From a virus (Duplodnaviria > Heunggongvirae > Uroviricota > Caudoviricetes), in IMG/VR virus record IMGVR_UViG_2585427621_000012: a DNA stretch of 33,994 nt. One strand, 5' to 3'. This document shows, piece after piece, positions 1-31,587 of the stretch (its first letter is position 1; every line of letters starts with the position of its first letter). The notes beneath the pieces are model-generated. The model saw only the letters and a program-made list of their open reading frames with translations, had not been told where the DNA came from and searched no databases. A program made the position numbers and the translations under genes.

Positions 1-1362
1 ATGTTTAAACCGGAACTCCTTTCCCCGGCGGGAACGCTGAAAAATATGCGTTACGCTTTCGCTTATGGCGCAGATGCTGTTTATGCGGGCCAGCCGCGTT
101 ACTCCCTGCGTGTGCGCAACAACGAATTCAACCACGAAAACCTTCAGCTCGGCATCAATGAAGCCCACGCGCTGGGGAAAAAGTTTTATGTCGTGGTCAA
201 CATTGCACCGCACAACGCCAAGCTGAAAACCTTTATCCGTGACCTGAAACCGGTGGTGGAAATGGGGCCGGATGCGCTGATTATGTCCGATCCAGGGCTG
301 ATTATGCTGGTGCGTGAGCACTTCCCTGAAATGCCGATCCATCTCTCGGTACAGGCTAACGCCGTGAACTGGGCGACGGTGAAATTCTGGCAGCAAATGG
401 GACTGACCCGCGTGATCCTCTCTCGCGAGCTGTCGCTGGAAGAGATTGAAGAGATCCGCAATCAGGTGCCGGATATGGAGATCGAGATCTTCGTTCACGG
501 CGCACTGTGCATGGCCTACTCCGGTCGCTGCCTGCTCTCTGGCTATATCAACAAGCGCGATCCGAACCAGGGTACCTGCACCAACGCCTGCCGCTGGGAG
601 TACAACGTCCAGGAAGGGAAAGAAGATGACGTTGGCAACATCGTACACAAGTACGAGCCGATTCCGGTGCAAAATGTTGAGCCGACGCTGGGTATCGGCG
701 CGCCAACCGACAAAGTGTTTATGATCGAAGAAGCCCAGCGTCCGGGCGAGTATATGACCGCGTTTGAAGATGAGCACGGCACTTACATCATGAACTCGAA
801 AGATCTGCGCGCCATCGCCCATGTAGAACGCCTGACCAAAATGGGCGTGCATTCGCTGAAAATCGAAGGCCGTACTAAATCTTTCTACTATTGCGCACGC
901 ACCGCACAGGTTTATCGTAAAGCTATCGATGATGCCGCTGCGGGCAAACCGTTCGATACCAGCCTGCTGGAAACTCTGGAAGGTCTGGCGCATCGTGGCT
1001 ATACCGAAGGTTTCCTGCGTCGTCATACTCACGACGATTATCAGAACTACGAATACGGTTATTCAGTTTCTGACCGCCAGCAGTTTGTTGGTGAGTTTAC
1101 CGGTGAGCGCAAGGGGGACCTCGCGGCGGTAGCGGTGAAAAATAAATTCTCCGTTGGCGACAGCCTTGAGCTGATGACGCCGCAAGGCAACATTAACTTT
1201 ACCCTTGAGCACATGGAAAACGCCAAAGGCGAAGCTATGCCGGTAGCACCAGGCGATGGTTATACTGTGTGGCTCCCGGTGCCGCAGGATCTTGAGCTAA
1301 ATTACGCGCTGCTGATGCGTAATTTCTCCGGGGAAACTACGCGTAACCCCCACGGTAAGTGA
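1..1362 (+). CDS. yegQ: U32-family peptidase-like protein YegQ (TrhP, tRNA hydroxylation)
   Basis: Complete 453-aa ORF from ATG at 1; sequence recognised as E. coli YegQ (MFKPELLSPAGTLKNMRYAFAYGADAVYAGQPRYSL...); host flank to the left of the prophage. Confidence 0.85.
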   Translation: MFKPELLSPAGTLKNMRYAFAYGADAVYAGQPRYSLRVRNNEFNHENLQLGINEAHALGKKFYVVVNIAPHNAKLKTFIRDLKPVVEMGPDALIMSDPGLIMLVREHFPEMPIHLSVQANAVNWATVKFWQQMGLTRVILSRELSLEEIEEIRNQVPDMEIEIFVHGALCMAYSGRCLLSGYINKRDPNQGTCTNACRWEYNVQEGKEDDVGNIVHKYEPIPVQNVEPTLGIGAPTDKVFMIEEAQRPGEYMTAFEDEHGTYIMNSKDLRAIAHVERLTKMGVHSLKIEGRTKSFYYCARTAQVYRKAIDDAAAGKPFDTSLLETLEGLAHRGYTEGFLRRHTHDDYQNYEYGYSVSDRQQFVGEFTGERKGDLAAVAVKNKFSVGDSLELMTPQGNINFTLEHMENAKGEAMPVAPGDGYTVWLPVPQDLELNYALLMRNFSGETTRNPHGK

Positions 1363-1412: not shown

Positions 1413-1446
1413 TACAGCTGCATTTATTAAGGTTATCATCCGTTTC

Positions 1447-1533
1447 GCTGAAAAACATAACCCATAAAATGCTAGCTGTACCAGGAACCACCTCCTTAGC
1501 CTGTGTAATCTCCCTTACACGGGCTTATTTTTT
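1447..1533 (+). ncRNA. cyaR: CyaR (RyeE) Hfq-dependent small RNA
   Basis: Matches the remembered CyaR sequence GCTGAAAAACATAACCCATAAAATGCTAGCTGTACCAGGAACCACCTCCTTAGCCTGTGTAATCTCCCTTACACGGGCTTATTTTTT; terminator hairpin CCTGTGTAA/TTACACGGG followed by a U-run. Confidence 0.8.
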
Positions 1534-1534
1534 A
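1507..1534. repeat. att core, left copy (AATCTCCCTTACACGGGCTTATTTTTTA), overlapping the 3' end of cyaR
   Basis: Identical 28-bp copy at 33492-33519; reverse complement matches the remembered 27-bp P2 att core AAAAAATAAGCCCGTGTAAGGGAGATT. Confidence 0.8.
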
Positions 1535-1596
1535 CGCGTAATACAATGAAATAAAAGGATTTATTTCTGGTCACGTCCACATATTGACCACATCGA

Positions 1597-1623
1597 CAAA
1601 AAAAGCCCCTCAACTGAGGGGCT
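1597..1623 (-). terminator. Rho-independent terminator downstream of ogr
   Basis: Hairpin AGCCCCTC-aact-GAGGGGCT; on the minus strand it is followed by a T-run (plus-strand A-run 1597-1604). Confidence 0.5.
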
Positions 1624-1635
1624 TTCTGTTTGTAA

Positions 1636-1854
1636 TTACATCCACATAATTTGCTGCCCTGACGGCAACGGGTGCGGTCTTACGGCGTGGACTTCTCCCG
1701 GCTTCACGATGTATCGCTGTACCGACTCATAAGTGATGAACGTGGCGCTGCAATTCACGTTCTGACACTGGTGATAACGCTCTTTTGTCGTGTCAGTGAT
1801 ATAGCGACTTGTACGCGCATGTGCGGCATGCTGGCATAAAGGACAATGAAACAT
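1636..1854 (-). CDS. ogr: Late-gene transcriptional activator Ogr (zinc-finger)
   Basis: 72-aa product MFHCPLCQHAAHARTSRYITDTTKERYHQCQNVNCSATF... recognised as P2 Ogr; the 93-aa track ORF has a spurious N-terminal extension. Confidence 0.9.
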   Translation of the reverse strand: MFHCPLCQHAAHARTSRYITDTTKERYHQCQNVNCSATFITYESVQRYIVKPGEVHAVRPHPLPSGQQIMWM

Positions 1855-1935: not shown

Positions 1936-3099
1936 TCATTCATCATCTTCTGTTTCGTATTCCACATCAGAAAGCCTGACCTCAAGCTCTAAGGACGTCG
2001 TGAAGCCGCTATTATTCAGAAAATGTGTCACCTTAGTGATGGTCCAGTCCTGCTCGTCTATGACGCGCTTAAAGCCTGACACTCTGACCGGTGTTTCCGT
2101 GTAAATATCTGCACGACCGGTAGCCAGGATGATGGAGAACTCCGCAACGCCCCGTTGCAGTTTGTCCCACTTCGCCTGAGCAGCACGCATGGCCTGTGCT
2201 TTCGTGGCATATACCGTGGTCAGGGCAAAAACGTTGTCAGCCTCACCGGCCATGTATTCACCTTCGCGCGCTTCCGGTACTTTTGGCGCTTTCTTCTGCC
2301 TGACCGGTTTCGCTTTCGGGTGCTCCAGTGCGCGCAGGTGTTTCTCTTTCTTTTTGCGTTTCAGTTTTACCTTCTGCTTTTGCGGTTTCGGGTCTTTGGT
2401 GTGTAACCACTTTGCCGTTACACCGGTATAGGCTCCACGGTCAGCAATCGCAAAATGATGGCGGTCGCCGTCGCTGCGGGTTATGGTGACCTGCGGGATT
2501 TTTTTACCGCTGGCCGTCACCCCCTGCCCCGCTTTGAGAAACAACAGTTTTCCCATTTTTACCGAGACCTCACCGCCGTTGCGTTCAGCAAGGCGGGTCA
2601 GGAATTTTGCATCAGACTCCTGCGACTGGTCGATGTGCGGGATTTTAATTCCGGCCAGTGACGGCGCGACACTGGCTTCCAGCCTGTTACGGGAGGCTAT
2701 TGCCTCAACAATCGCACCGAGCGTGGTGTCATGCCAGGAGTCTTCACGGCGGGAATTGAGCGTCCCGCGAAAATCTGCACTCCGGGCGCGGATGGTGACC
2801 ACATCCGGCGCGCCCCGGTGTTCAACCTCATCAACGGTAAATTTCCCTTTGCATACCAGGGCAAAACCTTTCCAGCCGATATACACCGTCAGGACAGCGC
2901 CACGAATCGGCAGCCCGACCTGCCCGTCGGCATCGTTCAGTTCAATATCAAGCTGGTCAGCCTCAAAGCCCCGGTTATCCGTCAGAGTCATGCTCATCAG
3001 ACGGTCGCTGATATTGCCGGTAATATCCCTGCTGTCGAGCATCAGCATGTAATCCGGCGTCAGCGTACTGCCTGCATCAAATGTCAGTGCATCCAGCAT
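1936..3099 (-). CDS. D: Tail protein gpD
   Basis: 387-aa ORF, P2 gpD-like in sequence and in position (between ogr and U). Confidence 0.9.
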   Translation of the reverse strand: MLDALTFDAGSTLTPDYMLMLDSRDITGNISDRLMSMTLTDNRGFEADQLDIELNDADGQVGLPIRGAVLTVYIGWKGFALVCKGKFTVDEVEHRGAPDVVTIRARSADFRGTLNSRREDSWHDTTLGAIVEAIASRNRLEASVAPSLAGIKIPHIDQSQESDAKFLTRLAERNGGEVSVKMGKLLFLKAGQGVTASGKKIPQVTITRSDGDRHHFAIADRGAYTGVTAKWLHTKDPKPQKQKVKLKRKKKEKHLRALEHPKAKPVRQKKAPKVPEAREGEYMAGEADNVFALTTVYATKAQAMRAAQAKWDKLQRGVAEFSIILATGRADIYTETPVRVSGFKRVIDEQDWTITKVTHFLNNSGFTTSLELEVRLSDVEYETEDDE

Positions 3100-3578
3100 T
3101 ATCCCGCCCCCGTCATACCTGTGAATTTAGTCGCCATACTGCCAGCCTTACCGATGAGCGATTCCGCCTGTTTACCGATATCGCCATAAAGCGCGGCCAG
3201 TGGTTCGTCAACGCGGGTGAGCGACAGCGTAAAATCAATTTTTCGGGGTGTGCCGTCTGCAAAGAAAATACTCCCTGTTTCACTCACCCTGCTGATGACA
3301 TACATGCCGTAAATCATGCCGGTGCCATCCAGCAACGGCCACGCCCGACCTTCCTCTGCCATCAGCCTGAGCGTGGTCATCGTCAGCTTGCCGCCGGTCA
3401 GTTCGGGATAAAGCACACCGGCCAGCGTCATGTTTTCCTCGCCAACGCCGAGAAACTGGTAGGCATCCCGTTTACCGATACGGGAATTTGACGGCCAGCG
3501 ATAATCTGATTCACGCTGCATGGTCTGGTGTGGCAGCGTCTGGCGCATAAAAACAAACATACCTAACGCGAGCATCAT
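3099..3578 (-). CDS. U: Tail protein gpU
   Basis: 159-aa ORF, same size and position as P2 gpU; overlaps the D start. Confidence 0.85.
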   Translation of the reverse strand: MMLALGMFVFMRQTLPHQTMQRESDYRWPSNSRIGKRDAYQFLGVGEENMTLAGVLYPELTGGKLTMTTLRLMAEEGRAWPLLDGTGMIYGMYVISRVSETGSIFFADGTPRKIDFTLSLTRVDEPLAALYGDIGKQAESLIGKAGSMATKFTGMTGAG

Positions 3579-3592
3579 TTTTCGTCACCTCC

Positions 3593-6040
3593 TTAACCGT
3601 CATGCATCATGCTGGCACGGGCGCGCGCACGTTTATCCCGCTCGTATTTTTCGAGCGCATCCTGTAACTGGCGGTCAAGCTGTGTCCCCGGCGCAGTACC
3701 ACCCGTCAGGCTGATGTGATATTCGTTTTTACTCTGGTCCACATAAGAGCGGCCAGCCGGTGCCGTGACCGGCTGATAAGCCTGATAGCCTGCATAAGAG
3801 CTGGTCGCCGGAATATAACCACCGGTGCCATACGTGGCGGCATGAGTTCTGGCGGCGGTCTGGTCAAGTGTGTCTGACTCTTTGTTGATAACACCGAGTT
3901 TTTCCAGTACCCAGTCAATACCACTGCGCAGTTTGTTGAACGCATTAAGCGGCAGCATCAACGCGTCAGCCAGTGCCTGCCCGAACATGACGCCCGTGTC
4001 ACGGCAACGGTTCAGGGTGTCCTGGGTGGCTTTGACCGGGGCAATCAGTTTTTTAAACCACTGCCACGCGGCCTGTAACTTTTCACCCAGCCAGTCAAAC
4101 AGCGGCTTAAGTGGCGTGAACAGTTCCCCCACCGGCGCAAATGCAGCTTTCAGCCCTTCAACCACACCGCCAAAGAATGCGCTGACAGGCTCCCAGTATT
4201 TACGGATAAGCAACGCCCCGGCGACAATTGCAGCCACCACGGCCACAACCGGCCAGCTAATCGCCCCGATGGCCGTCATAACAGCACTGCCAACCGTCGT
4301 GAAGATTGCCCCCATTGCGCCTGCTGCCGCGATGATGGCATTAATGCCGGTGATAACCGGCCAGGCTACAAGACCAATTGCACCGATGATGCCAATAAGC
4401 GCCAGTGCGCCACCGACAATAAGGCCGATGGTTGACGCCAGTGATTTGTTTTTCTGGATCCAGCCGTCGAGTTTTAACACATACTTTGTGGCCGTCTGCG
4501 TGAGATTACGCAGTGCGCCTTCCTGTTGGTCAAACAGGTCAGTCCCCACCGCCTCATAAGCGGACTGAAACTCCTTAAAGTCACCGCCGAGGTTGTCCTG
4601 CATGATATTTACCAGCTCTGCGGTCTTCCCGTCTGAGGCTTTAAACGCAGCGGTCAGTTTGTCCAGCTTTCCGGTTGAGGCGGCAGTCATCAGCACGGCG
4701 GCGGCTGAACTGGCCTCCTCCCCGAAAATGGTTTTCATGTATTCAGCCTGCTGGGCAGTACCGAGCCGGTTTTTCTCAAAACTGGCCTGCATTTCTTTCA
4801 GAATGGTAAATATTGGTCGGGTATTCCCCTTGCTGTCTGAGGTTTTCACTCCAAGCTCTTTGAGTGCATCCCATGCTTTTCCCGTCGGTGCCTGCAGGCG
4901 ACTTAACACGGCACGGCTTCCCGTCCCCGCCATTGAGCCTGTGATTTTTGCATCATGCAGCGCCCCGACCATTGCGGCGGTTTCTTCAATGCTGACACCG
5001 GCATTTTTTGCCACAGGTGCGGCATAGGTCAGCGCATCGCTCATACCGTCAAAATCGGCGGCGGTTTTGTTCATCGTCATGGAGAGAACATCCCCGATAT
5101 GAGCAACCTTATCGTTTGAAAGCTGAAAGGCAGATTTCATCCCCATCAGCAGGGCGGCGTTTTCTTCCATCGTGCGACGGTTCGCCAGCGCCATATTCAG
5201 CGTGACCGGCGTTGCCGCCTGAATGGCATCAACATCCCCACCCGCTTTCGCGATGATAATCTGTGCACCGGCCGCATCATCCGCCGAGGCGGCGGTATTG
5301 TCGCCGAGCTGGCGCGCCTGCTTGCGTAGCGCGGCCATTTCGGCGGAGTCTTTTGCCACACCGAGCACGGCCTGTAATTCTGAGTTTTTCTGCGCAAATT
5401 CATAACCGGGCATCAGCAGCTTAACACCGGCCATCGTTCCCGCCGCCGCAATCCCCACACCGGCAGCGCCCACTGAGGCCATATTTCCGGCCAGCTCCTT
5501 TCCTGCCTGATAGCGCTGTTTTACTGCGTTAAGTTTTGCCTGTTGCGCACTGACACGCGCCAGCGCGTCACGCTGCCGGTTAAGCTGTGCGGTGGTTTCA
5601 CTGATACGGTTTTTCAGCCCCAGCTCATCATGTGCAAGATTGCGGGTATTAATTCCCACAGCGGCCAGTTCCCGCTGCTGGCGTTTAACGGAATCCGTCA
5701 GGCGGTTATATTTCGCCTGTAAGTCCTCCGCCGCACGCTTTGCGGATTCCAGCACTTTCGCCTGAGCACGGGTCGGACGTTCGGTGTTTTTAAACTGTGT
5801 GGCAAGGGCTTCGGCCTCCTGCCGTGCCTTTTCAAGTGCATGACCAGTCACGGCGAGCTGTGCGCTGGTCTTGCGGAATCCCTCAATACGGGATGCCTGC
5901 CCGTTCAGCTCGCGCAGTGATTTTTGTGTTTCCCGGATATCCCCCGACAGCGACTTACTCGCTGTGCGGATGGATTTAAACGGGCGGGATGCCTGGTCAA
6001 CAGCCCTGAGCAATACCTGTAATTTTACATTGTTACTCAT
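3593..6040 (-). CDS. T: Tail tape-measure protein gpT
   Basis: 815-aa ORF, Ala/Gly-rich with coiled-coil and hydrophobic segments; P2 gpT size and position. Confidence 0.9.
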   Translation of the reverse strand: MSNNVKLQVLLRAVDQASRPFKSIRTASKSLSGDIRETQKSLRELNGQASRIEGFRKTSAQLAVTGHALEKARQEAEALATQFKNTERPTRAQAKVLESAKRAAEDLQAKYNRLTDSVKRQQRELAAVGINTRNLAHDELGLKNRISETTAQLNRQRDALARVSAQQAKLNAVKQRYQAGKELAGNMASVGAAGVGIAAAGTMAGVKLLMPGYEFAQKNSELQAVLGVAKDSAEMAALRKQARQLGDNTAASADDAAGAQIIIAKAGGDVDAIQAATPVTLNMALANRRTMEENAALLMGMKSAFQLSNDKVAHIGDVLSMTMNKTAADFDGMSDALTYAAPVAKNAGVSIEETAAMVGALHDAKITGSMAGTGSRAVLSRLQAPTGKAWDALKELGVKTSDSKGNTRPIFTILKEMQASFEKNRLGTAQQAEYMKTIFGEEASSAAAVLMTAASTGKLDKLTAAFKASDGKTAELVNIMQDNLGGDFKEFQSAYEAVGTDLFDQQEGALRNLTQTATKYVLKLDGWIQKNKSLASTIGLIVGGALALIGIIGAIGLVAWPVITGINAIIAAAGAMGAIFTTVGSAVMTAIGAISWPVVAVVAAIVAGALLIRKYWEPVSAFFGGVVEGLKAAFAPVGELFTPLKPLFDWLGEKLQAAWQWFKKLIAPVKATQDTLNRCRDTGVMFGQALADALMLPLNAFNKLRSGIDWVLEKLGVINKESDTLDQTAARTHAATYGTGGYIPATSSYAGYQAYQPVTAPAGRSYVDQSKNEYHISLTGGTAPGTQLDRQLQDALEKYERDKRARARASMMHDG

Positions 6041-6460
6041 TCGTGTTTCCGCTTCGCCTGAGCGCCTTTTCGCGCCATGTGATGAGTTCGGTCAGGCTCA
6101 TGGGATACAGTTCTGATGGCGGCCAGTGAAATACCACTGCCACATCCGCCATCAGGTCATCGACCGAGAGATTTTTCGGAAACGTCACTGCACCGAGTTC
6201 GGCGACAAAAAACCGACCACCTTACCGGCCAGCGCCACAAGGTCAGGCAGTTCCAGCGCGGCGACCTCCTGTTCGGTCAGCATCGGTGCCGTCATGCGCG
6301 GCAGCACTTTAATCAGTGCATCGACTTCGGAGTTCGCGACCGCAGCCAGACTGACACCGCGCAGCGTCCCGGCATTGGGTTTCATCAGCGTGACCTGTTC
6401 GATAACCTGCTCACCACGCTTGACCGGATTGTCCAGGGTAATCACATTTTCTTTGTTCAT
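6033..6460 (-). CDS. Tail assembly chaperone E+E' fusion produced by a -1 programmed frameshift
   Basis: After the T_TTT_TTG slip the -1 frame stays open for 57 codons to a TAA at 6035-6033, overlapping the T start; total 142 aa, as for P2 E+E'. Confidence 0.7.
6185..6460 (-). CDS. E: Tail assembly chaperone gpE
   Basis: 91-aa ORF in the P2 gpE position between FII and T. Confidence 0.85.
   Translation of the reverse strand: MNKENVITLDNPVKRGEQVIEQVTLMKPNAGTLRGVSLAAVANSEVDALIKVLPRMTAPMLTEQEVAALELPDLVALAGKVVGFLSPNSVQ
6206..6212 (-). other. Slippery heptamer T_TTT_TTG for the E to E' -1 frameshift
   Basis: Minus-strand TTTTTTG covering codons F84-L85 of gpE (plus-strand CAAAAAA). Confidence 0.7.
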
Positions 6461-6516
6461 GGTTTTCTCACTTCTGAATCAGGGTTAACCGGTCAGCCTG
6501 GCTGACCGGATGAAAA

Positions 6517-7035
6517 TCACAGGCCGATATTGCGGCGGTGTTGCTCCAGCCGGTCGACGCCGTTCACCTTCTCAATCATGTTGATGGTGTCGATTTCGAC
6601 CAGCTCCTTACCGTCCATCGTCAGCCGGAAATAGGTGCAGACCACGGAGATTTTCGACTCGGTGTCTTCTCCCTGTTTACCCTCGCCGGTGTCGATTTCT
6701 TTCTGACGGCCACGCATGACCACCTCGACGGCCACCGTTTCGCCGGTATCGTCGCGCTGGTAAGAGCCTGCAAAACGAATCGGTACGGCATCCACACCGG
6801 TTGCGGCGTAAAGCTCCCAGATAACCGAATCCGGGAAGCCACCGAGCGACCACTCCATTGACAGCGCATCGTCATCAAGGCCGAGGTCTACCGGTGCGCT
6901 GCCATTCATCCCCGCACCGCGATAGTTTTCGAGCTTACGGGTCAGTTTTGGCAGCGTGACGGACTTCGCGACGCCCTGATAGCTGTAGCCGTTCAGAAAG
7001 ACGTTCATTAACTTGAGTTTGCGCGGCATTGCCAT
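6517..7035 (-). CDS. FII: Tail tube protein gpFII
   Basis: 172-aa ORF, P2 FII size and position. Confidence 0.9.
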   Translation of the reverse strand: MAMPRKLKLMNVFLNGYSYQGVAKSVTLPKLTRKLENYRGAGMNGSAPVDLGLDDDALSMEWSLGGFPDSVIWELYAATGVDAVPIRFAGSYQRDDTGETVAVEVVMRGRQKEIDTGEGKQGEDTESKISVVCTYFRLTMDGKELVEIDTINMIEKVNGVDRLEQHRRNIGL

Positions 7036-7047
7036 CGGTCAGGCTCC

Positions 7048-8238
7048 TTAATTGCTGTTAACCGAGGTGACCAGATTTGCCAGGTATTTATCGGTGATAC
7101 GCTGGCGCAGGGTCAGGTTTTCAAGAGGAGGTACCGGTGTATAGTCGTAGTCGATATACAGTTTTCCGGCCTTGAGGGTTTCCGCATCGCTGGATTCTTC
7201 GCTGAACCAGCAGGTCGCATCCACGATATAGCCGTTTGTTTTCAGCTCACGGAATTTGGCATTGATGCCGTCAACGATGTCGCGAATCAGCGTTGCGGTG
7301 ATGGGCTTGTCCACCGCCCACATGTGCGCCTCAGCCATCGTGTCGGCCAGCACCTGCGCGGTGCGGGTGTAGTTTTCAAAGAGGAACAGCGGGTCATCAG
7401 AGCAGGTACGGTTACCCCAGAAGCGGAAACCGTCGCGGCGAATCAGCGTAGTGACGCCTGACTCGTTAAGCAGGTCAGCATCGGTGCCGGACTCCTGCAA
7501 ATCCCAGAATACAGATGCGCTGATGCCGTTAACACCGTTTACCCCGACGTTGGACAGCGTTTTATGCCAGCCCTGCTCCTGGTCGATTTTCGCGCGCAGA
7601 CCCAGCGCACGGGCGGTGGCATACGCGGTGGCGGTGGTGCTGCTGACCGTATCCCATGCGAGGAAATCCAGCCAGATGACCATCAGCTCACGCTGGCTGA
7701 AATTCTGGCGGTAGGCTTTCACCTCGGAAATGGTTTTACAGCCCCATGCGCTGATATACCCGAAAGCGCGCAGCTTCTGACAGACTGATGCCAGTGCAAC
7801 AGCCACCTCTTTGGTGTCCAGTCCCGGCACGCCGAGAATACGCGGTTTAACACCGGTTACCGACTCTGCCGCCAGCAGGGCTTTCAGTCCGGTATACTGA
7901 CCGTTTTCGTCAGTGGTGCCGATGATATTGGAAACGGTCTGCGCGAGTTTCGTTTCTTCGTCGTCGCCGGTGCCGTCTTCAACACGCACGACAACGGTAA
8001 CCGGTTTTGACTGGTCAGCGATGGCCTGCAACGATGCCGCCAGCGTGCCTTTTTTACCGGCCTTTGCAATTGCGCTCTGCACATTGGTAATCAGCACAGG
8101 TTTATTGAGGGGGAAGGTTTCCGCATCCGCATCGCTGGCCGTGCAGACCATGCCGACAATGGCGGTGGATACGGTGGAAATGACGCGGGTGCCGTCGTTA
8201 ATCTCCAGCACCTGCACGCCGTGATGATAATCACTCAT
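7048..8238 (-). CDS. FI: Contractile tail sheath protein gpFI
   Basis: 396-aa ORF, P2 FI size and position. Confidence 0.9.
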   Translation of the reverse strand: MSDYHHGVQVLEINDGTRVISTVSTAIVGMVCTASDADAETFPLNKPVLITNVQSAIAKAGKKGTLAASLQAIADQSKPVTVVVRVEDGTGDDEETKLAQTVSNIIGTTDENGQYTGLKALLAAESVTGVKPRILGVPGLDTKEVAVALASVCQKLRAFGYISAWGCKTISEVKAYRQNFSQRELMVIWLDFLAWDTVSSTTATAYATARALGLRAKIDQEQGWHKTLSNVGVNGVNGISASVFWDLQESGTDADLLNESGVTTLIRRDGFRFWGNRTCSDDPLFLFENYTRTAQVLADTMAEAHMWAVDKPITATLIRDIVDGINAKFRELKTNGYIVDATCWFSEESSDAETLKAGKLYIDYDYTPVPPLENLTLRQRITDKYLANLVTSVNSN

Positions 8239-8296: not shown

Positions 8297-8890
8297 CTAT
8301 TTGTCCCGGTTGGCTAAGGGATGACACAATTTATTCTTTGTCGCTGATGAGGGGAATTTTTTATAGAGCGTGGACAGGCCAATATCAAAAATCAGCGCCA
8401 CACGTTGACGAGATTCCCCCGCAGCCAGCAACCGTCCGACCTGCTCCCACTCACTCGTGGTGAGTTTCGGTCGTCTGCCACCAATACGACCTTTGGCTCT
8501 GGCCGCTTCCAGTCCGGCGCGTGTCCGCTCGACAATGAGTTCTCGCTCCATTTCTGCCAGGGCCCCCATCACATGAAAGAAAAAGCGCCCCATCGGCGTG
8601 CTGGTATCAATAGCATCCGTCAGGCTGCGAAAATTAACGCCGCGTTCGCGCAGTTCCTCAACCAGAATGACCAGATGCCGCATACTACGCCCCAGCCTAT
8701 CCAGCTTCCAGACTACCAGAGTGTCACCTGCTGATAATGTTCTGAGCAGTTTTTTCAGTCCCGGTCGGTCGGACTTCGTGCCGCTGATTTTATCCTCAAA
8801 ATCAGCTCACATCCTGCACACTCCAGCGCATTACGCTGCAATTCCGTGTTCTGGTCATTTGTTGACACGCGTACATAGCCAATAAGCATG
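8297..8890 (-). pseudogene. Serine DNA invertase (Gin/Hin/Pin/Cin family), frameshifted as sequenced
   Basis: N-terminus MLIGYVRVSTNDQNTELQRNALECAGCE (8890 downwards) and C-terminal 128-aa ORF (...VVWKLDRLGRSMRHLV...GRIGGRRPKLT...) are in different frames; one missing base in a T-run (plus-strand A-run 8788-8791) relative to the expected ...ELIFEDKISGTK... reading. Confidence 0.7.
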
Positions 8891-10516: not shown

Positions 10517-11716
10517 TTACTCACCAACAGCCCACCAACTGTAATTCATCGATACCGTGTCGCTGGTTGATGACGTTCTGTAAGCAGAATTAAAGCCGGT
10601 TAACGTTGGGCCTTCTGCAGTCATCACGAACCCTCGCCCAGCGCCTAAAGGCGCACCGCCATCACCAGAATGAGTAAGCATGGCGCAGTCCGCTTTTTTG
10701 GGGAAAGGGATGCTGAATGTAATTCTCATTGTTTGCGTCGATAATGTCGGCGTAACCGCACCACGACCATATTGCAGGATTTTACCGTTGGGTAATTTCA
10801 TCCATCCATCACCACTGGCAAAAGAGGCCATGTCCGGTATCTGATTTTCCCCTGTCCCCACATCCCGTTTTGCCGCTTCTCCCAAACCAAGGTATGCGAG
10901 AAGACCGGCAACATCCTTTCCACTCAAATGAGTCAGCGTCTCATCCAGTGGCTGCTTACCTGACAGCGCATTGTTAATGGTGGTGCTGAATTTCGGGTCA
11001 TTGTTAATGGCCGCGGCAATTTCTTTCAGTGTGTCCAGCGTGTCTGGCGCGCCGTTAATCAGAGCGGTAATAGCGGTCTGAACAAACTCAGTGGTCGCAA
11101 TCCGCGTGGTGTTATTTCCTGCGGCAGGCGTTGGCGCTTTTGGTTCTCCGGTAAATGTCGGATTATGTTTCTGCGCATACTGGGTATGAGGATCCTGTGC
11201 GGCAATGTGGTTTCTCATCTGGTCATCCACATACAGCCTTAATTCCAGGACTTTATCATCCACGTATTTACGGGTCGCCAGTACCACCGACGGGTCGATT
11301 TTCAGCGTGATGGCTTCGGTATTCGTGACAACCAGAATCATGCGGATAGTCTGGGTACGACCGCTGCCTTCCTGTAACTGCGGTTTGTACGTTTCCGGGC
11401 AGTTCGCCACCGCAATGAGTACGCCTTCATCATCATAAAGCCCAATCTCACGGATCCAGAATCCGCCCTCGTTCTCAGGGATGATTTGCTCCGCAATAAT
11501 CTGGCTCTGGTTGTTCGGGTCAACACTCAGAAGATTCAGCGGCGCGATGCGTTTCTGGTTAATAAGTTTTGTCTGTGCCGGGTCAGGTGTCGGCAAGACA
11601 CCATTTGCATCACCAACGGCCATTTGCGTCAGATTCAGCTTACTGCCGAGCATCGTCGCGTTAGCCAGCCGTGCCGCGCCCTGATTAGTCAGAATGGCGT
11701 AGTATTTCACTGTCAT
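10517..11716 (-). CDS. H: Tail fibre protein (gpH-like), active orientation
   Basis: 399-aa ORF; N-terminal about 250 aa resemble P2 gpH (...GGFWIREIGLYDDEGVLIAVAN..., ...NDPKFSTTINNALSGKQP...); C-terminal part differs and begins at the crossover site (..YLGLGEA..). Confidence 0.85.
   Translation of the reverse strand: MTVKYYAILTNQGAARLANATMLGSKLNLTQMAVGDANGVLPTPDPAQTKLINQKRIAPLNLLSVDPNNQSQIIAEQIIPENEGGFWIREIGLYDDEGVLIAVANCPETYKPQLQEGSGRTQTIRMILVVTNTEAITLKIDPSVVLATRKYVDDKVLELRLYVDDQMRNHIAAQDPHTQYAQKHNPTFTGEPKAPTPAAGNNTTRIATTEFVQTAITALINGAPDTLDTLKEIAAAINNDPKFSTTINNALSGKQPLDETLTHLSGKDVAGLLAYLGLGEAAKRDVGTGENQIPDMASFASGDGWMKLPNGKILQYGRGAVTPTLSTQTMRITFSIPFPKKADCAMLTHSGDGGAPLGAGRGFVMTAEGPTLTGFNSAYRTSSTSDTVSMNYSWWAVGE
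10877..10902. repeat. Invertase crossover site, right (26 bp), inside the tail-fibre gene
   Basis: TTCTCCCAAACCAAGGTATGCGAGAA; imperfect internal dyad (TTCTCCCAAACC / GGTATGCGAGAA) around a central AA; encodes YLGLGE at about residue 270 of H. Confidence 0.65.
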
Positions 11717-12324
11717 GCGTTTACTCTCAGGTTATCAATTAAATGAATGGCCGAGGCCGGGAAATAATCCCCTCCGACAATAATGGCCTCCGGGGTGTAG
11801 GGATAAACCGTCAGGGCGTCGCCGTGATAGCATCCCGCACCGGCAAAAATGTTGCCGGTTGTACTTAAACTGATAGCCAGTCCCGTCAGATGGCGGCTTG
11901 CAGGTTTTGCATCAGCAACGAGACGCTCCAGCTCCTGATACATTTCCTCGGTAATACCCTGCTCAAGCACGCCAACAACGATGCGGAACGTCCCCGGCTC
12001 CTCGTTGAGCTGCCACCACTCCCTCACCTCAATCAGATAGCCGAGCGGCTCCACCACACGGCGAATCGCACCAATAGTGCCCTTATGGCAGTGAATGAAA
12101 TACGCATCGCGGATAACAGCGCGTTTTGTCGCTTCCGGCCACTTATCATCCCAGCGGTCAACCGAAAATGACCACGCCAGCCACGGCAGCAGATTTGCCG
12201 GACAGGTATCCGGGTTCCACAGCTCACGAATACTGACCGGCGTTTTTTCAATTTCCGCACAGGCTCTTGCGGCGGCGACTTCAAGCGGTGATGAGCCGGT
12301 CGGCAGCAGGCGCGAATCACTCAT
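11713..12324 (-). CDS. I: Baseplate assembly protein gpI
   Basis: 203-aa ORF in the P2 gpI position, overlapping H and J. Confidence 0.8.
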   Translation of the reverse strand: MSDSRLLPTGSSPLEVAAARACAEIEKTPVSIRELWNPDTCPANLLPWLAWSFSVDRWDDKWPEATKRAVIRDAYFIHCHKGTIGAIRRVVEPLGYLIEVREWWQLNEEPGTFRIVVGVLEQGITEEMYQELERLVADAKPASRHLTGLAISLSTTGNIFAGAGCYHGDALTVYPYTPEAIIVGGDYFPASAIHLIDNLRVNA

Positions 12325-13225
12325 CCGAGCCTCCGGTCACGACGCTGTATTCGGTGCAGAAAGACGCCTGCGTACTGTTGAGCACAATGTCAGCCAGAGG
12401 TGCAGTCAGTTCGACACGTTGCACGCCTTCCACATGCAAAGCGGCATAAATGGCAGACAGACGGATGTCGCGCCCAAGCCGGTGCTGTGCCGTGATGTAC
12501 GCTTCCAGTTTTTTCACGGCAGCAGCGCGGATGGGTTCGCTTTCGGGACCTGGGTAAAGGTAAAGCGTGGCGTTTATCTGATATTCAACAATGGCGGCAG
12601 ACTGCACGGTCACGCGGTCGGCCACCGGCCTGACGTCCTCGCCATTAAGGGCGTTACGCACCACGGCCAGCAGGTCTTCGGATGCGACGCCGTTATTTTC
12701 ACGTGACAGCACGGAGATAGTGACGCAGGCCGGAGACGGACTGGTGACAGAGATATCCGCGACACGCCCGTCAGCACTGCGACCATGATACTGATAGGCT
12801 CCCACCGACCCGGCGACGCTTAAGCCCTCAAACGCCTGCTGAATACGCAGACGATAATCGGTGTCAGACTCCATCACTGCCGGTGTCGGCGGGATAGTCG
12901 AATCATCTGCCGGGGTGATAATCAGGCGTGTGGTGTTGTAATTGGCACCAATCACATCAAGGTCATTACCGGCGGCACAGGCCAGCATCACCGCCCGTGC
13001 GGCCTCATTCACACGCTGACGCCAGATAAGCTCACGATAAGCATTTTCCTCCAGAAGTTTGACGAGAGGCTCGGATTCCAGCGTCAGGGTACGGGCGACC
13101 GCCTCCTGCTGGTCTTCCGGGTAAAGGGAAATCAGTGTCGCCTTGCGTTCGGCAAGAATGGTTTCAAAGTCCAGCTCCTCGACCACATCCGGTGCGGGTA
13201 GCTGGTTCAGGTCGATAATCGGCAT
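12317..13225 (-). CDS. J: Baseplate assembly protein gpJ
   Basis: 302-aa ORF, P2 gpJ size and position. Confidence 0.85.
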   Translation of the reverse strand: MPIIDLNQLPAPDVVEELDFETILAERKATLISLYPEDQQEAVARTLTLESEPLVKLLEENAYRELIWRQRVNEAARAVMLACAAGNDLDVIGANYNTTRLIITPADDSTIPPTPAVMESDTDYRLRIQQAFEGLSVAGSVGAYQYHGRSADGRVADISVTSPSPACVTISVLSRENNGVASEDLLAVVRNALNGEDVRPVADRVTVQSAAIVEYQINATLYLYPGPESEPIRAAAVKKLEAYITAQHRLGRDIRLSAIYAALHVEGVQRVELTAPLADIVLNSTQASFCTEYSVVTGGSDE

Positions 13226-13229
13226 GGTT

Positions 13230-13577
13230 TCAACTCACAGGGATGGTTAACGAAAGTGGCTGGCCGGTGTCGTTGTGCTGGCCGGTTAACGTGACCGTCA
13301 TTCGCCCGTCAAAACTGCGCTCAGTAGTGACGGATGACAGGGTGACGCGGGGTTCCCATTTCAGCACCGCCATGTAACAGGCGACCTTAATCTGCAACTC
13401 AAGCGCCGGGGTCTGCGGCTGGTCAATCATTAATGCCAGCAACGAGCCGTAATCACGACGCATCACCCGTGAGCCGACCGGTGTACGCAGGATATCGCCG
13501 ATACTCTGGCTGATATGCTCAAGGTCAGTGACAGTCAGGCCATCACTGCGATTCATTCCGAGATAACGCGCTGTCAT
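13230..13577 (-). CDS. W: Baseplate wedge protein gpW
   Basis: 115-aa ORF, P2 gpW size and position. Confidence 0.85.
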   Translation of the reverse strand: MTARYLGMNRSDGLTVTDLEHISQSIGDILRTPVGSRVMRRDYGSLLALMIDQPQTPALELQIKVACYMAVLKWEPRVTLSSVTTERSFDGRMTVTLTGQHNDTGQPLSLTIPVS

Positions 13578-14209
13578 AAAGGACTCCCGGTTGTGCCGCC
13601 GCTGTCGCCGGGGTGTTTATGGGTATGCAGTACCTTACCGTTTGATGAGAGTTCACCACCGGTGTGTTCAATGTTGCCGCGCATCGTCCCGCCCTTCTGT
13701 ACTTCCAGCGTGCCGGTAATCAGCCTGTTGGTGCAGACCACCTCCGGTGTGTCCAGGGTGATGCGGGTTGACGCTTTCACCATGACCACCGGCACCGTGG
13801 CAGTAACAGAATCAGAAGCCGTCACGCTGGCCGTTTTAATTCCGCTTACCGTCAGTGCACTGGTTTCAGGTTCATACTCAATCACCGCCCCGTCAGGGAA
13901 ACGGATATGCAGGGCATCCGCCGACGCAGACGGCGCGGGGTTATCGCCGGAATAAATCCCCGGCAGAACAAACGCTGTGTCAAGTTCACCGCCCACGGCC
14001 AGAATCAGCACCTGCTCCCCCACGGAAGGTGCCCACCATGTGCGCGAACGCCCGGCACGACAAGTCAGCCACTGAAGCCAGTCGGTGCACATGCCGCCGG
14101 TCTGCACACGGCAGCGACCGGCGTTAAGGTCGGTTTCGACGACAAGGCCGGTGCGAATCATGTTGCGCAGTGCGCGCGCGAGTTCCTGGATATTTGCGAG
14201 AGTGTTCAT
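13574..14209 (-). CDS. V: Baseplate spike protein gpV
   Basis: 211-aa ORF, P2 gpV size and position. Confidence 0.85.
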   Translation of the reverse strand: MNTLANIQELARALRNMIRTGLVVETDLNAGRCRVQTGGMCTDWLQWLTCRAGRSRTWWAPSVGEQVLILAVGGELDTAFVLPGIYSGDNPAPSASADALHIRFPDGAVIEYEPETSALTVSGIKTASVTASDSVTATVPVVMVKASTRITLDTPEVVCTNRLITGTLEVQKGGTMRGNIEHTGGELSSNGKVLHTHKHPGDSGGTTGSPL

Positions 14210-14275: not shown

Positions 14276-14728
14276 CTAACGGTCGAGGTGAGCCAGGATA
14301 ATCTCTTCAATCATCTGCACATCCTCACCGGTAAAGCCGAGCAGAGGACGCGCCGGATAATCAATTTTCTTACCGTCTTTCCGGTTTTCTTCCGACAGAC
14401 CGAACTGATGCACGCTGGCGATTTTCGGTGACTTCCCGCCGTAAAACTCCATTGATGCCTGTTCCTGGCTGGCACGGATATGCAAAAAACGACTGGTAAT
14501 AAGTTTCGCAAACATTTTTCGCTTAACGCGACCGGTCTTTTTTCTGACGCTCTGCTGCTGGCGTGGCGCGTAGGGTGTGCCGTCCGGGGCTTTCTGTGTC
14601 ATCACCCGACGCTGCTGACTCTGCCGCAGACGTTTCGCCAGTTCGGCGCTCAGTCGTCGACGCCCTGACGGTGACAGCGATTCAGTCAGTCCGGTCAGCC
14701 GGTCTTCAAAACGCTTAAACTCATTCAT
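14276..14728 (-). CDS. S: Tail completion protein gpS
   Basis: 150-aa ORF, P2 gpS size and position. Confidence 0.8.
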   Translation of the reverse strand: MNEFKRFEDRLTGLTESLSPSGRRRLSAELAKRLRQSQQRRVMTQKAPDGTPYAPRQQQSVRKKTGRVKRKMFAKLITSRFLHIRASQEQASMEFYGGKSPKIASVHQFGLSEENRKDGKKIDYPARPLLGFTGEDVQMIEEIILAHLDR

Positions 14729-15188
14729 CCCACTTGCTCACCAGTTCGCCATTGATATAAAGCTCCATCGGGCGGGTGACCGGCTCCGGCGGCGGAGGTT
14801 CCGGGATATTCTTCACATGCAGTGCGCCGACCACCTCACTGACCAGCGTGCGCTCGGTCAGCATCAGGCTGATGCTGATATCAAAGCTGCTGTCATTGTT
14901 GATGTCTGCATAAAACGTGAAGCCCTTTTTCTGGCCTGCGTCGGTGGTCATGATGTCGGGCTGATTTTCCCGCAGCCACGCCAGCACCGGCACGATGAGC
15001 AGGTCAAAATCACCGGTAAAGTCGGTCACAATGACATTGAGCGTGTAACGCTTTTCGAATGACAGCGACGCCGCCAGTGTGGAGGCAATACTCCCGTTAT
15101 CCACGAATATCCGCAGCATATCGGGGTTAGTTTTCAGCACCGTGACGGCATCAGTCAGCGCCCTGCGCAGGCTGTCGGGTTTGAGCAT
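14721..15188 (-). CDS. R: Tail completion protein gpR
   Basis: 155-aa ORF, P2 gpR size and position. Confidence 0.8.
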   Translation of the reverse strand: MLKPDSLRRALTDAVTVLKTNPDMLRIFVDNGSIASTLAASLSFEKRYTLNVIVTDFTGDFDLLIVPVLAWLRENQPDIMTTDAGQKKGFTFYADINNDSSFDISISLMLTERTLVSEVVGALHVKNIPEPPPPEPVTRPMELYINGELVSKWDE

Positions 15189-15441
15189 CGTTTTCGTCCT
15201 GACAGTGTTTAATCATTTTTACCTGGCTGGCACAGCGTGCCAGCGCGTTCTCAAGCTGCCGGATATCAGCACTTAAATCGCCGTTCGTCTGCGGGTCACT
15301 GCCCGGCATCGGGCAAAGGCTCACTTTCGGGCAGGCGTTGGCGACAATCACTGGCGTCTGCGCAGGCGGGGCGCTGGTGCAACCGGCGCACAGCATCAGG
15401 CAGGTCAGTGCCGTACCAGCGGCGAAAATCTTCGTTTTCAT
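15151..15441 (-). CDS. lysC: LysC, Rz1-like outer-membrane spanin lipoprotein, embedded out of frame in lysB
   Basis: 96-aa product MKTKIFAAGTALTCLMLCAGC... with signal peptide and lipobox; GAGG ribosome-binding site 8 nt upstream; lies in an alternate frame of the lysB 3' half and overlaps the R start. Confidence 0.7.
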   Translation of the reverse strand: MKTKIFAAGTALTCLMLCAGCTSAPPAQTPVIVANACPKVSLCPMPGSDPQTNGDLSADIRQLENALARCASQVKMIKHCQDENDAQTRQPAQGAD

Positions 15442-15721
15442 TGAGTAACCTCGTGATGGCTTTCTCGCGCTGTGCTTCACGCTTCGCGGCGTTCTCCAGC
15501 TCCTGACGCAGTGCCACCTGCGCCATCTCGTTTTTGTCTGCCCTGGTGAGGGCAACATGAAGCTGATTTTTCAGCATGATGATGGTCGTCTGCTGCCCAC
15601 TGGCGACATTGTTTGCCCTGTCCAGCGAGGCGCGCAGGCTGGCGTTTTCATGCTTCGCCAGAAACAGACCGGCCACCGCCAGTGATAACAACACAACCAG
15701 CACAATCATCAGCTTTGACAT
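15296..15721 (-). CDS. lysB: LysB, Rz-like inner-membrane spanin
   Basis: 141-aa ORF with an N-terminal transmembrane segment and a charged coiled-coil periplasmic part; P2 lysB size and position. Confidence 0.8.
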   Translation of the reverse strand: MSKLMIVLVVLLSLAVAGLFLAKHENASLRASLDRANNVASGQQTTIIMLKNQLHVALTRADKNEMAQVALRQELENAAKREAQREKAITRLLNENEDFRRWYGTDLPDAVRRLHQRPACADASDCRQRLPESEPLPDAGQ

Positions 15722-16134
15722 GGTTCCCGCCCCTCAAAACGCTGACGGCAGGCCGTACGTATCAGCCGGAAAAACAGCGACGCCACAAGATAAATCAGCG
15801 CGGTAAAAATCCACCCGGCGGCGACCAGCGAGATAAACGTCGCCACCATCACCACCAGAGCCGCCGCCCGTCTGCGCCACGGCACCGGCTGCAAAAACAG
15901 CGACGTGACAATCTTCACGGCCAGCGATTCCGGCGGCAGCTCCCGCCCGTAGCGTTCCAGTACATACTCTGTGGCATACACCCCGACACCACCGGCAACC
16001 ACACAGATAACCGTCGCCAGAATCGCCCAGGCAGCGACAAAACTGACGGCCACGCTCTGCGGATAAATCAGGGACAGTGCCAGCATCAGCGCCAGCGACA
16101 CGTGCAGCATCAGTGAAAGGGATAATTTCTTCAT
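15709..16134 (-). CDS. lysA: LysA, lysis-timing membrane protein
   Basis: 141-aa hydrophobic ORF in the P2 lysA position. Confidence 0.75.
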   Translation of the reverse strand: MKKLSLSLMLHVSLALMLALSLIYPQSVAVSFVAAWAILATVICVVAGGVGVYATEYVLERYGRELPPESLAVKIVTSLFLQPVPWRRRAAALVVMVATFISLVAAGWIFTALIYLVASLFFRLIRTACRQRFEGREPCQS

Positions 16135-16148
16135 GGTGTTTACTCCGT

Positions 16149-16646
16149 TTAAGCCGGTACGCCGCCAGCGGTACGCCAGACGGTGACCAGTTTTTCCAGT
16201 GAATGCTCACGCTGACCGTAACCGGCACCCGGCAGGGACGCCCAGATATTGCGACAGCGTGAAATGGCACGCTCAATGCGTCCCGCCCGGATGTCATCCA
16301 GTGCACCGCGTTCGCGGATCAACTGAATGGCGAGCCTGTCCTGTGACAACGGACTGAAATCCGGCAGGGCAAGCTGTTTGCGGTAATGCGGCCAGAACAG
16401 GTAAAGCTGCTGATAGCGACCGGAGGCCGTGGATTTTTCACCGCGACGGTTAAACACCTTCGCCGGTCGGCCATGCGCGAACGGGTGGTCACTGTAGTCG
16501 GTGAAAATTTCCGGCTTTCCGTCCAGTCCGGTGACTATCACGTCATAGCCCCGGTTTTTCGTCAGCGGATGATTCGCCGTCCCTTCGGACACGGCCAGCA
16601 TGTCGAGAAAGGCGGCGATATTCTGATGCGTGTTAATTACCGGCAT
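16149..16646 (-). CDS. K: Endolysin gpK (lambda R-like lytic transglycosylase)
   Basis: 165-aa ORF, P2 K size and position. Confidence 0.85.
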   Translation of the reverse strand: MPVINTHQNIAAFLDMLAVSEGTANHPLTKNRGYDVIVTGLDGKPEIFTDYSDHPFAHGRPAKVFNRRGEKSTASGRYQQLYLFWPHYRKQLALPDFSPLSQDRLAIQLIRERGALDDIRAGRIERAISRCRNIWASLPGAGYGQREHSLEKLVTVWRTAGGVPA

Positions 16647-16927
16647 TACGGTTTCCCCCTGCCCTTAAAGCGGCGCTGAATGGCAATCTCAATCACCTGA
16701 TAACCGGCGATACCCAGCATGGAGCCGATACCGCACACCGCAGGCAGTGACAGGTCAGGAAACTGCACCAGAACAACACCGGCAACCATCGAGACAAAAC
16801 CACCGAGCAACATGCGCCCGATAAACAGACGCGGGGTGATGGGTTCACCACCGGCAAGCACCTTGCCGACAACAATCAGCACTCCAATCATGAAAAGCGA
16901 CAGGACGCTTTTTTCTTCTGCTGTCAT
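16646..16927 (-). CDS. Y: Holin gpY
   Basis: 93-aa ORF with transmembrane segments and a basic C-terminus; P2 Y size and position. Confidence 0.85.
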   Translation of the reverse strand: MTAEEKSVLSLFMIGVLIVVGKVLAGGEPITPRLFIGRMLLGGFVSMVAGVVLVQFPDLSLPAVCGIGSMLGIAGYQVIEIAIQRRFKGRGKP

Positions 16928-16930
16928 GCG

Positions 16931-17134
16931 TTACTCCCACAGATTGACAGTTTCAGCCACGGGCGCGGTCTGAACGTCGGGCAGTTCGACGGCGGTGCCG
17001 TGCGGCAGCATCGCACCCAGTTCAGCCAGTCCCGGATTTGCGGCGAGCACGGTCTCAACCACGCCCTCAGTGCGCCCGTAATACCGGACACAAATGGCGT
17101 CGAGCGTGTCGCCCTGTAGCGCAAAGGTCTTCAT
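16931..17134 (-). CDS. X: Tail protein gpX
   Basis: 67-aa product MKTFALQGDTLDAICVRYYG...; the track ORF has an N-terminal extension; start overlaps the L stop. Confidence 0.8.
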   Translation of the reverse strand: MKTFALQGDTLDAICVRYYGRTEGVVETVLAANPGLAELGAMLPHGTAVELPDVQTAPVAETVNLWE

Positions 17135-17643
17135 CAGATTTGACTCACGATGCAGCGCGGCTTGTCCTGGATACGTGCCACCGCCCAGCGCATATCCCGC
17201 CACAGTTCATCAATGGTGCTGTCAATGCTGTCGGCCTTCTTGTCGCCCTTGGCACTGGCATCCACGCCGCGATAACGCTCATAAAGCGATGCGGTCGCCA
17301 TCGCACACACGGCGCGCTCGTAGTAAAAAACTTTGATGCTTTCACCGTCGATGTCGTCCGCCGGGACGTCCGCCAGACGCGTAAAACCGGCAGCAATTTT
17401 CTGTTCGCGGTACTCGTACAGCTCCGCATTCGTTTCCGCCATGCCTGACTTGATGGCCTCACGCAGACGGGCGGGGGCGACGGTCTGCTCAAGGCGCATA
17501 CGTTCCCGGACGCGCTTCGGGTCGATATCGGGAAAAAAGAACGTGTTTTTAATCACCGGCTCGTCGCCTGCCGGTTGCGGGATGACCACCGTACCCTCAC
17601 CGGACACGGGAGCCTCCTTTCGCGGAATAATCAGCGTCATCAT
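17134..17643 (-). CDS. L: Capsid completion protein gpL
   Basis: 169-aa product starting MMTLIIPRKEAP...; P2 L size; track ORF extended at the N-terminus. Confidence 0.8.
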   Translation of the reverse strand: MMTLIIPRKEAPVSGEGTVVIPQPAGDEPVIKNTFFFPDIDPKRVRERMRLEQTVAPARLREAIKSGMAETNAELYEYREQKIAAGFTRLADVPADDIDGESIKVFYYERAVCAMATASLYERYRGVDASAKGDKKADSIDSTIDELWRDMRWAVARIQDKPRCIVSQI

Positions 17644-17742
17644 GACTACCTCTGAAAAGTCGGGCGGTGGACGCCGGTGCAGTGTCAGGTGATTCACCCT
17701 CACTGACCGGCGTGCCGCCCTGGCGCGGGGCGCATTCGGTTG

Positions 17743-18486
17743 TTAACTGGCTTTCTTTTTCGGGCGTCCACGTTTTGCCGGTGTCACGCTCCGGGTCTTA
17801 CGCGGGGCGCGGGTGGCCGCTTTGGGCTGCGGCTCCGGCTTCGGTTTCAGCTCCCGCTCCAGTCGTTCAATCTCTTTTTTGACGCCTGCCTGACAGTCGA
17901 GCTGTGTCGCACGTTGCAGGTGAGCCAGCGCACCGGCGGCATCACCAGCGTCACGCAGAAACAGACCGGTGATTTTGTGCAGCTTTGCACGCACTTCATC
18001 AGGCATGTCTGCCGTGGCGGTCAGTGCAAGGGTCTCCGTCAGCAGGCGGGTATCCACAGACTCACCGGCAGCGTGGGCGCGCATGGCCGCGAGCGCCACC
18101 TCCTCGGTGAACATATACGGCGGGGTGCGGCGGTGTTTACCCGGCATGGTCAGACCGTACTTCAGGGCATAACGGGCAATCTCCAGCGCACCGGCAATAT
18201 CGCCGGTATCCAGACGCCACAGCATGACCGTCATCAGAATGTCATCCTGTGCACCTTTGCCCTGCTCCAGCACGCCGTTCACCCACGGCAACCAGAACGG
18301 CAGCAGTTCGCGTTTTTTCGCGGCCTTCAGCTCTTTTGAATAAATCGCTTTCAGTGTGCGCTGGTCTGCGGCCAGCTTGACCAGCATCTGCTCATAGACA
18401 GTTGCATGTCGCAGCGGGGCGGCGTCCCGCTGCGCGGTCATCGCTGCCGAGACCCGCATCATGTGGCGCTGTGCGGGACTCGTCAT
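17743..18486 (-). CDS. M: Terminase endonuclease (small) subunit gpM
   Basis: 247-aa ORF with a basic C-terminus; P2 M size and position. Confidence 0.85.
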   Translation of the reverse strand: MTSPAQRHMMRVSAAMTAQRDAAPLRHATVYEQMLVKLAADQRTLKAIYSKELKAAKKRELLPFWLPWVNGVLEQGKGAQDDILMTVMLWRLDTGDIAGALEIARYALKYGLTMPGKHRRTPPYMFTEEVALAAMRAHAAGESVDTRLLTETLALTATADMPDEVRAKLHKITGLFLRDAGDAAGALAHLQRATQLDCQAGVKKEIERLERELKPKPEPQPKAATRAPRKTRSVTPAKRGRPKKKAS

Positions 18487-18489
18487 CGG

Positions 18490-19563: not shown

Positions 19564-19621
19564 AGTTTTTCCTGAAATTAAGGGTTAATCGTGAAGGTTT
19601 TCCCGGACTGGCTGACGCCGG

Positions 19622-23625: not shown

Positions 23626-23644
23626 GTGCTTTCCCCGCCTCGCC
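23626..23644. other. cos site (19-nt cohesive end, GGCGAGGCGGGGAAAGCAC on the minus strand)
   Basis: Reverse complement of 23626-23644 equals the remembered P2 cohesive-end sequence; flanking sequence toward Q matches the remembered P2 left end. Confidence 0.75.
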
Positions 23645-23773
23645 CGCCCGCTTCATGTGGCGATTTTAATGCGGTTGCATTTTTATCGAAAGTCTCGTCT
23701 CACAAATCCCTCCCTTCACTAAATAGACTCATTATCCACATGCAATCTAATTCAAAAAAATGCATGTATAGTA

Positions 23774-25744: not shown

Positions 25745-25853
25745 TTCTCCTTGAAGACTTGATTTATAACAGAGTTTAACTTAGAGGTAGGCAATGCTTG
25801 TAGCGGTAACAATGCTTCGGATAGTCGTTTTATTTCTTTAAAATATCCATCAG

Positions 25854-30320: not shown

Positions 30321-30322
30321 TA

Positions 30323-31577: not shown

Positions 31578-31587
31578 ACGGTTCTCC

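Follow-up and report, generated by a model that had tools for sequence, protein, structure and literature searches.

Results

A complete cyaR gene ends in one of two copies of a 28-bp repeat

The window, by which we mean the whole 33,994-nucleotide stretch of DNA analysed here (virus record IMGVR_UViG_2585427621_000012), opens with the host gene yegQ and closes with the host gene yegR. Between them lies a phage element of 31,985 bp, counting one core (1535-33519), whose features are listed in Table 1. An Rfam scan of the window returned a single family, CyaR_RyeE, placed downstream of yegQ as is conserved for CyaR/RyeE. The match scores 100.7 bits against a gathering score of 47 (E = 3.3e-19), spans model positions 1-85 of 85 and is not truncated; the same scan found one copy of the gene in the window and no second cyaR at attR. 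According to literature cited in PMC3333887, expression of CyaR depends on cAMP-CRP, and the sRNA acts through Hfq on targets such as ompX.

Table 1 Host, prophage and attachment-site features of the window (positions counted from its first letter)
Feature	Position	Strand	Basis or remark
yegQ (trhP), host gene upstream of cyaR	1..1362	+	453-aa ORF; same coordinates annotated yegQ in strain 319
cyaR (ryeE) sRNA gene, complete	1445..1530	+	Rfam RF00112; terminator fold
attL core	1507..1534	+	last 2 nt of cyaR terminator 5' half-stem, loop, 3' half-stem, U-tail
Phage P arm (IHF site, Int arm-type sites)	1535..1600	+	aligns to AF063097 24293-24355
ogr / F-operon intrinsic terminator hairpin	1606..1630	-	homologous to annotated P2 terminator 24265-24288
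ogr, late-gene activator	1636..1854	-	72/72 aa identical to P2 Ogr
Tail genes D, U, T, E/E+E', FII, FI	1936..8238	-	97.5-100% aa identity to P2, full length
Serine invertase gene, frameshifted in window	8297..8890	-	Pfam Resolvase + HTH_7
Candidate invertible tail-fibre segment	8945..10902	.	27-nt inverted repeats 8945-8971 / 10876-10902
Tail fibre H (variant), baseplate I, J, W, V	10517..14209	-	H only 34-42% identical to P2 H
S, R, lysC/B/A, K, Y, X, L, M, N, O	14276..20476	-	93-100% aa identity to P2; orf30 absent
Terminase P, portal Q	20650..23456	+	99% aa identity to P2
cos region	23626..23672	.	matches P2 cosL and cosR
Lamassu (ABC-3C) cargo lmuA-lmuC-lmuB	23774..27462	-	PADLOC, Pfam; replaces P2 orf91, tin, old
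Early operon A, orf83-80, B, orf78, cox	27552..31863	-	84-100% aa identity to P2
Immunity repressor C, divergent from P2	31985..32284	+	65% aa identity to P2 C; HTH_3
int, tyrosine integrase	32399..33412	+	337/337 aa vs P2 Int; Pfam Int_N + Phage_integrase
Non-coding P' arm, int stop to core	33413..33491	+	identical to P2 here
attR core	33492..33519	+	second copy of 28-mer
Host flank resembling decayed P2 P arm	33520..33570	+	exact 14-15-mer (C)ATTGACCACATCGA common to P arm
yegR, downstream host gene	33677..33994	-	105-aa ORF; annotated yegR at matching position elsewhere

Folding of 1445-1534 gave an 11-bp terminator stem (AGCCUGUGUAA/UUACACGGGCU) closed by the loop UCUCCC and followed by the U-tail UUAUUUUUU, with z = -3.2 against shuffles. 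From this fold it follows that the repeat starts with the two final bases of the 5' half-stem and takes in the loop, the complete 3' half-stem and the U-tail as well. The original prediction had taken the left copy of the repeat for the terminator end of an intact cyaR, and the full-length Rfam match and the terminator fold both bear this out; the gene is undisrupted, with the same sequence as at prophage-free sites.

Scanning the whole window for AATCTCCCTTACACGGGCTTATTTTTTA returned two copies, both on the + strand, and no third when up to three mismatches were allowed; the chance expectation, from 100 dinucleotide-preserving shuffles, is 0. Since the bases outside the two copies differ (t before the left and a before the right, c after the left and t after the right), 28 bp is the full length of the exact repeat. 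With two mismatches, the similarity between the copies reaches 35 nt. No other exact direct repeat in the window is as long, and together the copies enclose the whole P2 gene set. The runner-up measures 17 bp and lies inside the phage, and no alternative long repeat bounding the element was found in the window.

The right copy lacks the cyaR promoter, the gene body and most of the 5' half-stem. With the adjoining P' arm it does not appear to supply a terminator for int, as the fold of 33470-33525 was no better than shuffles (z = -0.15). A strong hairpin is present just downstream of int (33420-33474), and P2 has it too. On sequence grounds the attR copy is most simply regarded as an inert by-product.

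The repeat is the P2 attachment core and is flanked by the P2 arms

The 28-mer is the reverse complement of positions 24356-24383 of the P2 genome (AF063097), with 28 of 28 bases identical. In that record, attP is annotated at 24356-24382 (27 bp) and the Int core-binding site at 24356-24383 (28 bp). We aligned the left junction, the right junction and P2 attP three ways. The left copy is followed by the P arm of P2, including the IHF site and the arm sites for Int, at ~97% identity to P2, and after that by the ogr terminator. The right copy is preceded by sequence that matches the P' arm of P2 and the int end base for base; the annotated Int arm-type site of this arm lies partly within the 3' end of int, from ~33378. 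The P arm (ogr side) at attL and the P' arm (int side) at attR are the arrangement expected from recombination of attP with attB.

These results uphold the earlier claim that a 28-bp core is duplicated at the prophage ends, with exactly two copies present, each identical to the P2 attP core. The right copy had been put 80 bp past int; measured from the end of the int stop codon (33412) to the start of the copy (33492) the distance is 79 nt, in agreement with that figure, and this upstream flank is the phage P' arm and not cyaR. Another long exact repeat around the P2 genes, which would have spoken against the prediction, was sought in the window, and the next repeat is the internal one of 17 bp.

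A sequence this short, with an AT-rich T run at its end, might be thought to recur by coincidence, or because cyaR was duplicated locally in a way that has nothing to do with the phage ends. We consider this scarcely conceivable: 0 of the 100 shuffles gave a match, the repeat is the annotated attP core of P2, a single cyaR was detected, and a P2 P' arm precedes the right copy. The shuffles, the sole cyaR, the identity with the attP core and the P' arm, together with the precise empty site described below, refute it.

The element is a full-length P2-type prophage with replaced cargo

The element is a complete P2-type prophage of the genus Peduovirus. At the DNA level, it aligns with P2 in collinear blocks of 94-98% identity (blastn) that cover all but three regions, and the closest phage records are P2-like (pro483, the 'P2' of E. 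coli O157:H43 and vB_EcoM-720R8). When all 42 annotated P2 proteins were used as tblastn queries, full-length matches were obtained for Q, P, O, N, M, L, X, Y, K, lysA/B/C, R, S, V, W, J, I, FI, FII, E, T, U, D, ogr, int, C, cox, B and A. With the exception of the replaced tail fibre H, the essential P2 genes are all uninterrupted ORFs with 82-100% amino-acid identity; the two arms and the two cores are intact, as is cos. The phage had been described as full length, and so it proved, since the essential P2 genes are all present and Int is 100% identical to P2 Int. For P2 orf30, fun(Z), tin and old, the blastn and tblastn comparisons with P2 found no counterpart in the prophage.

C is 65% and Cox 84% identical to the P2 proteins and there is no DNA-level match over 31842-32154; the immunity region therefore differs from that of P2. 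Judged from these sequences, the prophage is probably heteroimmune to P2 despite its identical integrase.

The Lamassu cassette occupies the old/tin hotspot, between cos and gene A. PADLOC assigned its proteins with E-values of 1.5e-235 (LmuB), 4.9e-34 (LmuC) and 3.5e-108 (LmuA). By Pfam, lmuA (26239-27462) encodes an alpha/beta-hydrolase/lipase-like N-terminus and a CTD8 domain; lmuC encodes the MC4 middle component and lmuB (23774-25744) an SMC-like ATPase. An effector gene with its CTD, lmuA, thus stands adjacent to lmuC and lmuB, as is required of a Lamassu system.

The candidate invertible segment, of ~1.96 kb, sits where the prophage departs from P2, between the 3' end of P2 I and fun(Z). 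Together with the invertase gene it takes the place of P2 fun(Z) and H/G. It contains tail-collar/tail-fibre C-terminal and tail-fibre-assembly ORFs in opposite orientations, which would provide alternative ends for the tail fibre. The invertase and the segment probably form a host-range switch of the Gin/Cin/Pin type.

A nearly identical prophage is present in E. coli strain 319 (NZ_CP018241.1, 2,780,9xx-2,812,9xx), with 99.8-99.97% identity across the window and the same junctions. The two differ by four single-base indels and by a small rearranged stretch near 10,300-10,355. All four indels are deletions in the window relative to strain 319 (8272, 8798, 25913 and 32344), three of them in homopolymer runs. 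The deletion at 8798 (A4 against A5 in strain 319) frameshifts the invertase and splits its 197-aa ORF, and the deletion at 25913 frameshifts lmuC, both of these being in homopolymer runs; the other two are intergenic. In strain 319 both invertase and lmuC are intact, whereas a tail-fibre gene is annotated as broken. The single-base deletions may be assembly errors or real inactivation.

One could regard the element as a defective, domesticated P2-like prophage that no longer excises or forms particles. The lesions in the invertase and lmuC and at the two intergenic positions would fit such a state, as would the behaviour of P2 prophages in general, which are non-inducible and excise rarely. 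Against it, the essential ORFs are full length, Int is unchanged and cos, arms and cores are intact, while the lesions are confined to non-essential cargo and three of the four fall in homopolymers, as is typical of assembly error. We therefore regard a defective prophage as unlikely, and the element described here should still be able to excise.

Insertion at the cyaR site is precise

We reconstructed the empty site by joining 900-1534 to 33520-33994, that is, the left flank, one core and the right flank (1110 nt), and searched for it in 5426 complete E. coli genomes. The reconstruction has an uninterrupted match of 1110/1110 in E. coli O157:H7 PV15-279, between yegQ and yegR, and at least 80% of it is held in one place in 4565 of the 5426 genomes. 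Since left flank, one core and right flank make up uninterrupted chromosome at 100% identity, the insertion was precise. The alignment to a prophage-free cyaR-yegR region proposed with the original prediction is thus contiguous over its whole length, and the statement that the 3' end of the sRNA is reconstituted on integration holds exactly, at 100% identity over the 1110 nt of the unoccupied site.

The cyaR/P-arm junction (1445-1640) is covered to at least 80% in 1175 of the 5426 genomes and the int-side junction (33400-33600) in 816. From these counts we estimate that ~15% of complete E. coli genomes, or about 1 in 7, carry a two-ended P2-type prophage here. Roughly another 7% have the left end only, as in K-12. 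In the K-12-type genome CY708 the order is cyaR, a complete core, the P arm, ogrK, a D pseudogene fragment, the partial core TACACGGGCTTATTTTTTT and the yegR flank. The ogrK/yegZ P2 remnant said to occupy the same site in K-12 is accordingly seen in this K-12-type genome, as ogrK and a D' fragment.

Such remnants raise the question of whether the phage entered by homologous recombination with a P2 remnant already at cyaR (for example one of the K-12 ogr-D' type) and not by attP x attB recombination. P2 remnants are indeed known at the site, and the host flank keeps ~50 bp of decayed P-arm-like sequence. However, the junctions lie exactly at the core, the outer flanks are 100% identical to the uninterrupted site with no extra remnant DNA, and the P arm at attL is of the phage type (~97% to P2), not the decayed host version. 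We consider this route highly improbable, and rejected it because the flanks exactly match the uninterrupted site.

The core and its right-hand flank in other genomes

In its sequence, the host flank right of the core is similar to a P arm of P2 that has decayed. The sequence (C)ATTGACCACATCGA, which contains an Int arm-type motif, occurs at a similar offset in the P arm and in the flank, and 2 of 5000 shuffles scored as well. This P-arm-like flank is present even in prophage-free Escherichia genomes. It is longer in Escherichia sp. MOD1-EC7003, of the cryptic clade, which keeps 16 nt missing from E. coli; this decayed-arm sequence is absent from the Kluyvera and Enterobacter flanks.

These comparisons give good support to the view that the flank is the fossil attL of an older P2-like insertion that decayed at the same site. 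What is left of it would be the core, still intact, and next to it ~50-70 bp of P arm in decay, with one Int arm-type site (TGACCACA) retained. By extension, the 'empty' cyaR attB would itself be an old prophage scar, in which the retained arm may help to capture P2 Int and so make cyaR the preferred site; we hold this reading as a whole to be quite improbable, and any contribution of the arm-like flank to integration is pure speculation.

The exact 27-nt P2 core is found at the 3' end of cyaR, as its terminator, in many Kluyvera species and Enterobacter hormaechei as well as in Escherichia and Shigella. In Kluyvera intermedia and one further record, a divergent P2-like P arm directly follows the core; P2-type phages therefore use cyaR beyond Escherichia.

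In E. coli uk_P46212 (ST131-like), the core carries a G-to-A change (ACACAGGC) that some E. coli lineages share. The change turns a U-G wobble of the cyaR terminator into a U-A pair and leaves attB one base off P2 attP. In lineages with ACACAGGC, the stretch before yegR is also ~170 bp longer.

The DNA that separates the attR flank from yegR contains a perfect inverted repeat of 11 bp (AGCACGATGCC ... GGCATCGTGCT, 33575-33617), which folds with z -4.0. The repeat is conserved where no prophage is present, and neither strand has a T-run after it.

Discussion

The element is almost certainly a P2-type prophage that was integrated by Int-mediated site-specific recombination at the classical P2 site, the 3' end of cyaR, and nothing in the evidence contradicts this. 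The phage attP core and the 28 bp that close the cyaR terminator region are the same. From what is established for P2 and for tyrosine integrases, Int, with IHF, would have exchanged strands inside this shared core, and Cox would be needed for excision. At attL, the host cyaR 5' sequence would thereby have been joined via the core to the phage P arm, keeping the gene and its terminator base for base. At attR, the phage P' arm would have been joined via the core to the host flank, leaving an orphan 3' fragment of cyaR. As attP equals attB over 28 bp, the point of exchange inside the core is not readable from the sequence. The cyaR transcript would be unchanged because the phage brings its own terminator loop, 3' half-stem and U-tail. 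We infer from these sequences that Int catalysed the integration event; expression of CyaR would likewise be expected to be unaffected by the prophage.

The use of cyaR as a P2 integration site is already known, and the arrangement described here is ordinary and well documented. It is presumably the site called locI in the older literature, which we take to be the preferred attachment site of P2 in E. coli. Both the P2 core of 27 nt and the remnant that K-12 carries at the preferred site were reportedly described by the Haggård-Ljungquist laboratory around 1989-1992. Bobay et al. list ryeE in E. coli as a previously known phage target, citing Wassarman 2001 (PMC3603311), and Nilsson et al. explain how the att cores of P2-like phages can be deduced from attL and attR (PMC3448106). 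The value of our analysis lies mainly in annotation, in that the boundaries of the prophage are fixed to the base and cyaR is seen to be undisrupted. In addition, the element is recognised as a variant of P2 in which the P2 integrase goes together with another immunity, a Lamassu cassette and a probably switchable tail fibre. To integration biology the analysis adds nothing new.

Compared with bacteriophage P2 itself (AF063097 / NC_001895), the prophage has the same 28-bp core, the same P and P' arms, the same Int and the same gene order. It differs in that the H/G tail-fibre genes give way to those of an invertible-segment type and in that Lamassu stands at the old/tin position. The ogrK/yegZ (D') remnant of K-12 shares its attL with the window, namely cyaR, a complete core, the P arm and ogr. 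Unlike the window, the K-12-type remnant retains only ogrK and a D fragment, a deletion having run from inside D into the attR core. P2-type prophages occupy the same sRNA-gene site in other strains; in Table 2 of the E. coli W genome paper (PMC3032704), the mobile elements entered under the insertion site 'cyaR RNA' are Wphi2 (P2) for strain W, ogr-D' for K-12 and P2*B for strain B. Temperate phages at the 3' ends of RNA genes include 186 at tRNA-Ile, Fels-2/SopEPhi at ssrA and the Salmonella phages at ryeB/sdsR, and in such cases the RNA gene survives integration because the attP core duplicates its 3' part (PMC3448106; PMC3603311; PMC3333887). In contrast to these tRNA, tmRNA and sRNA integrations, the prophage described here targets an Hfq-dependent sRNA, CyaR, and its core takes in only the terminator loop, the 3' half-stem and the U-tail.
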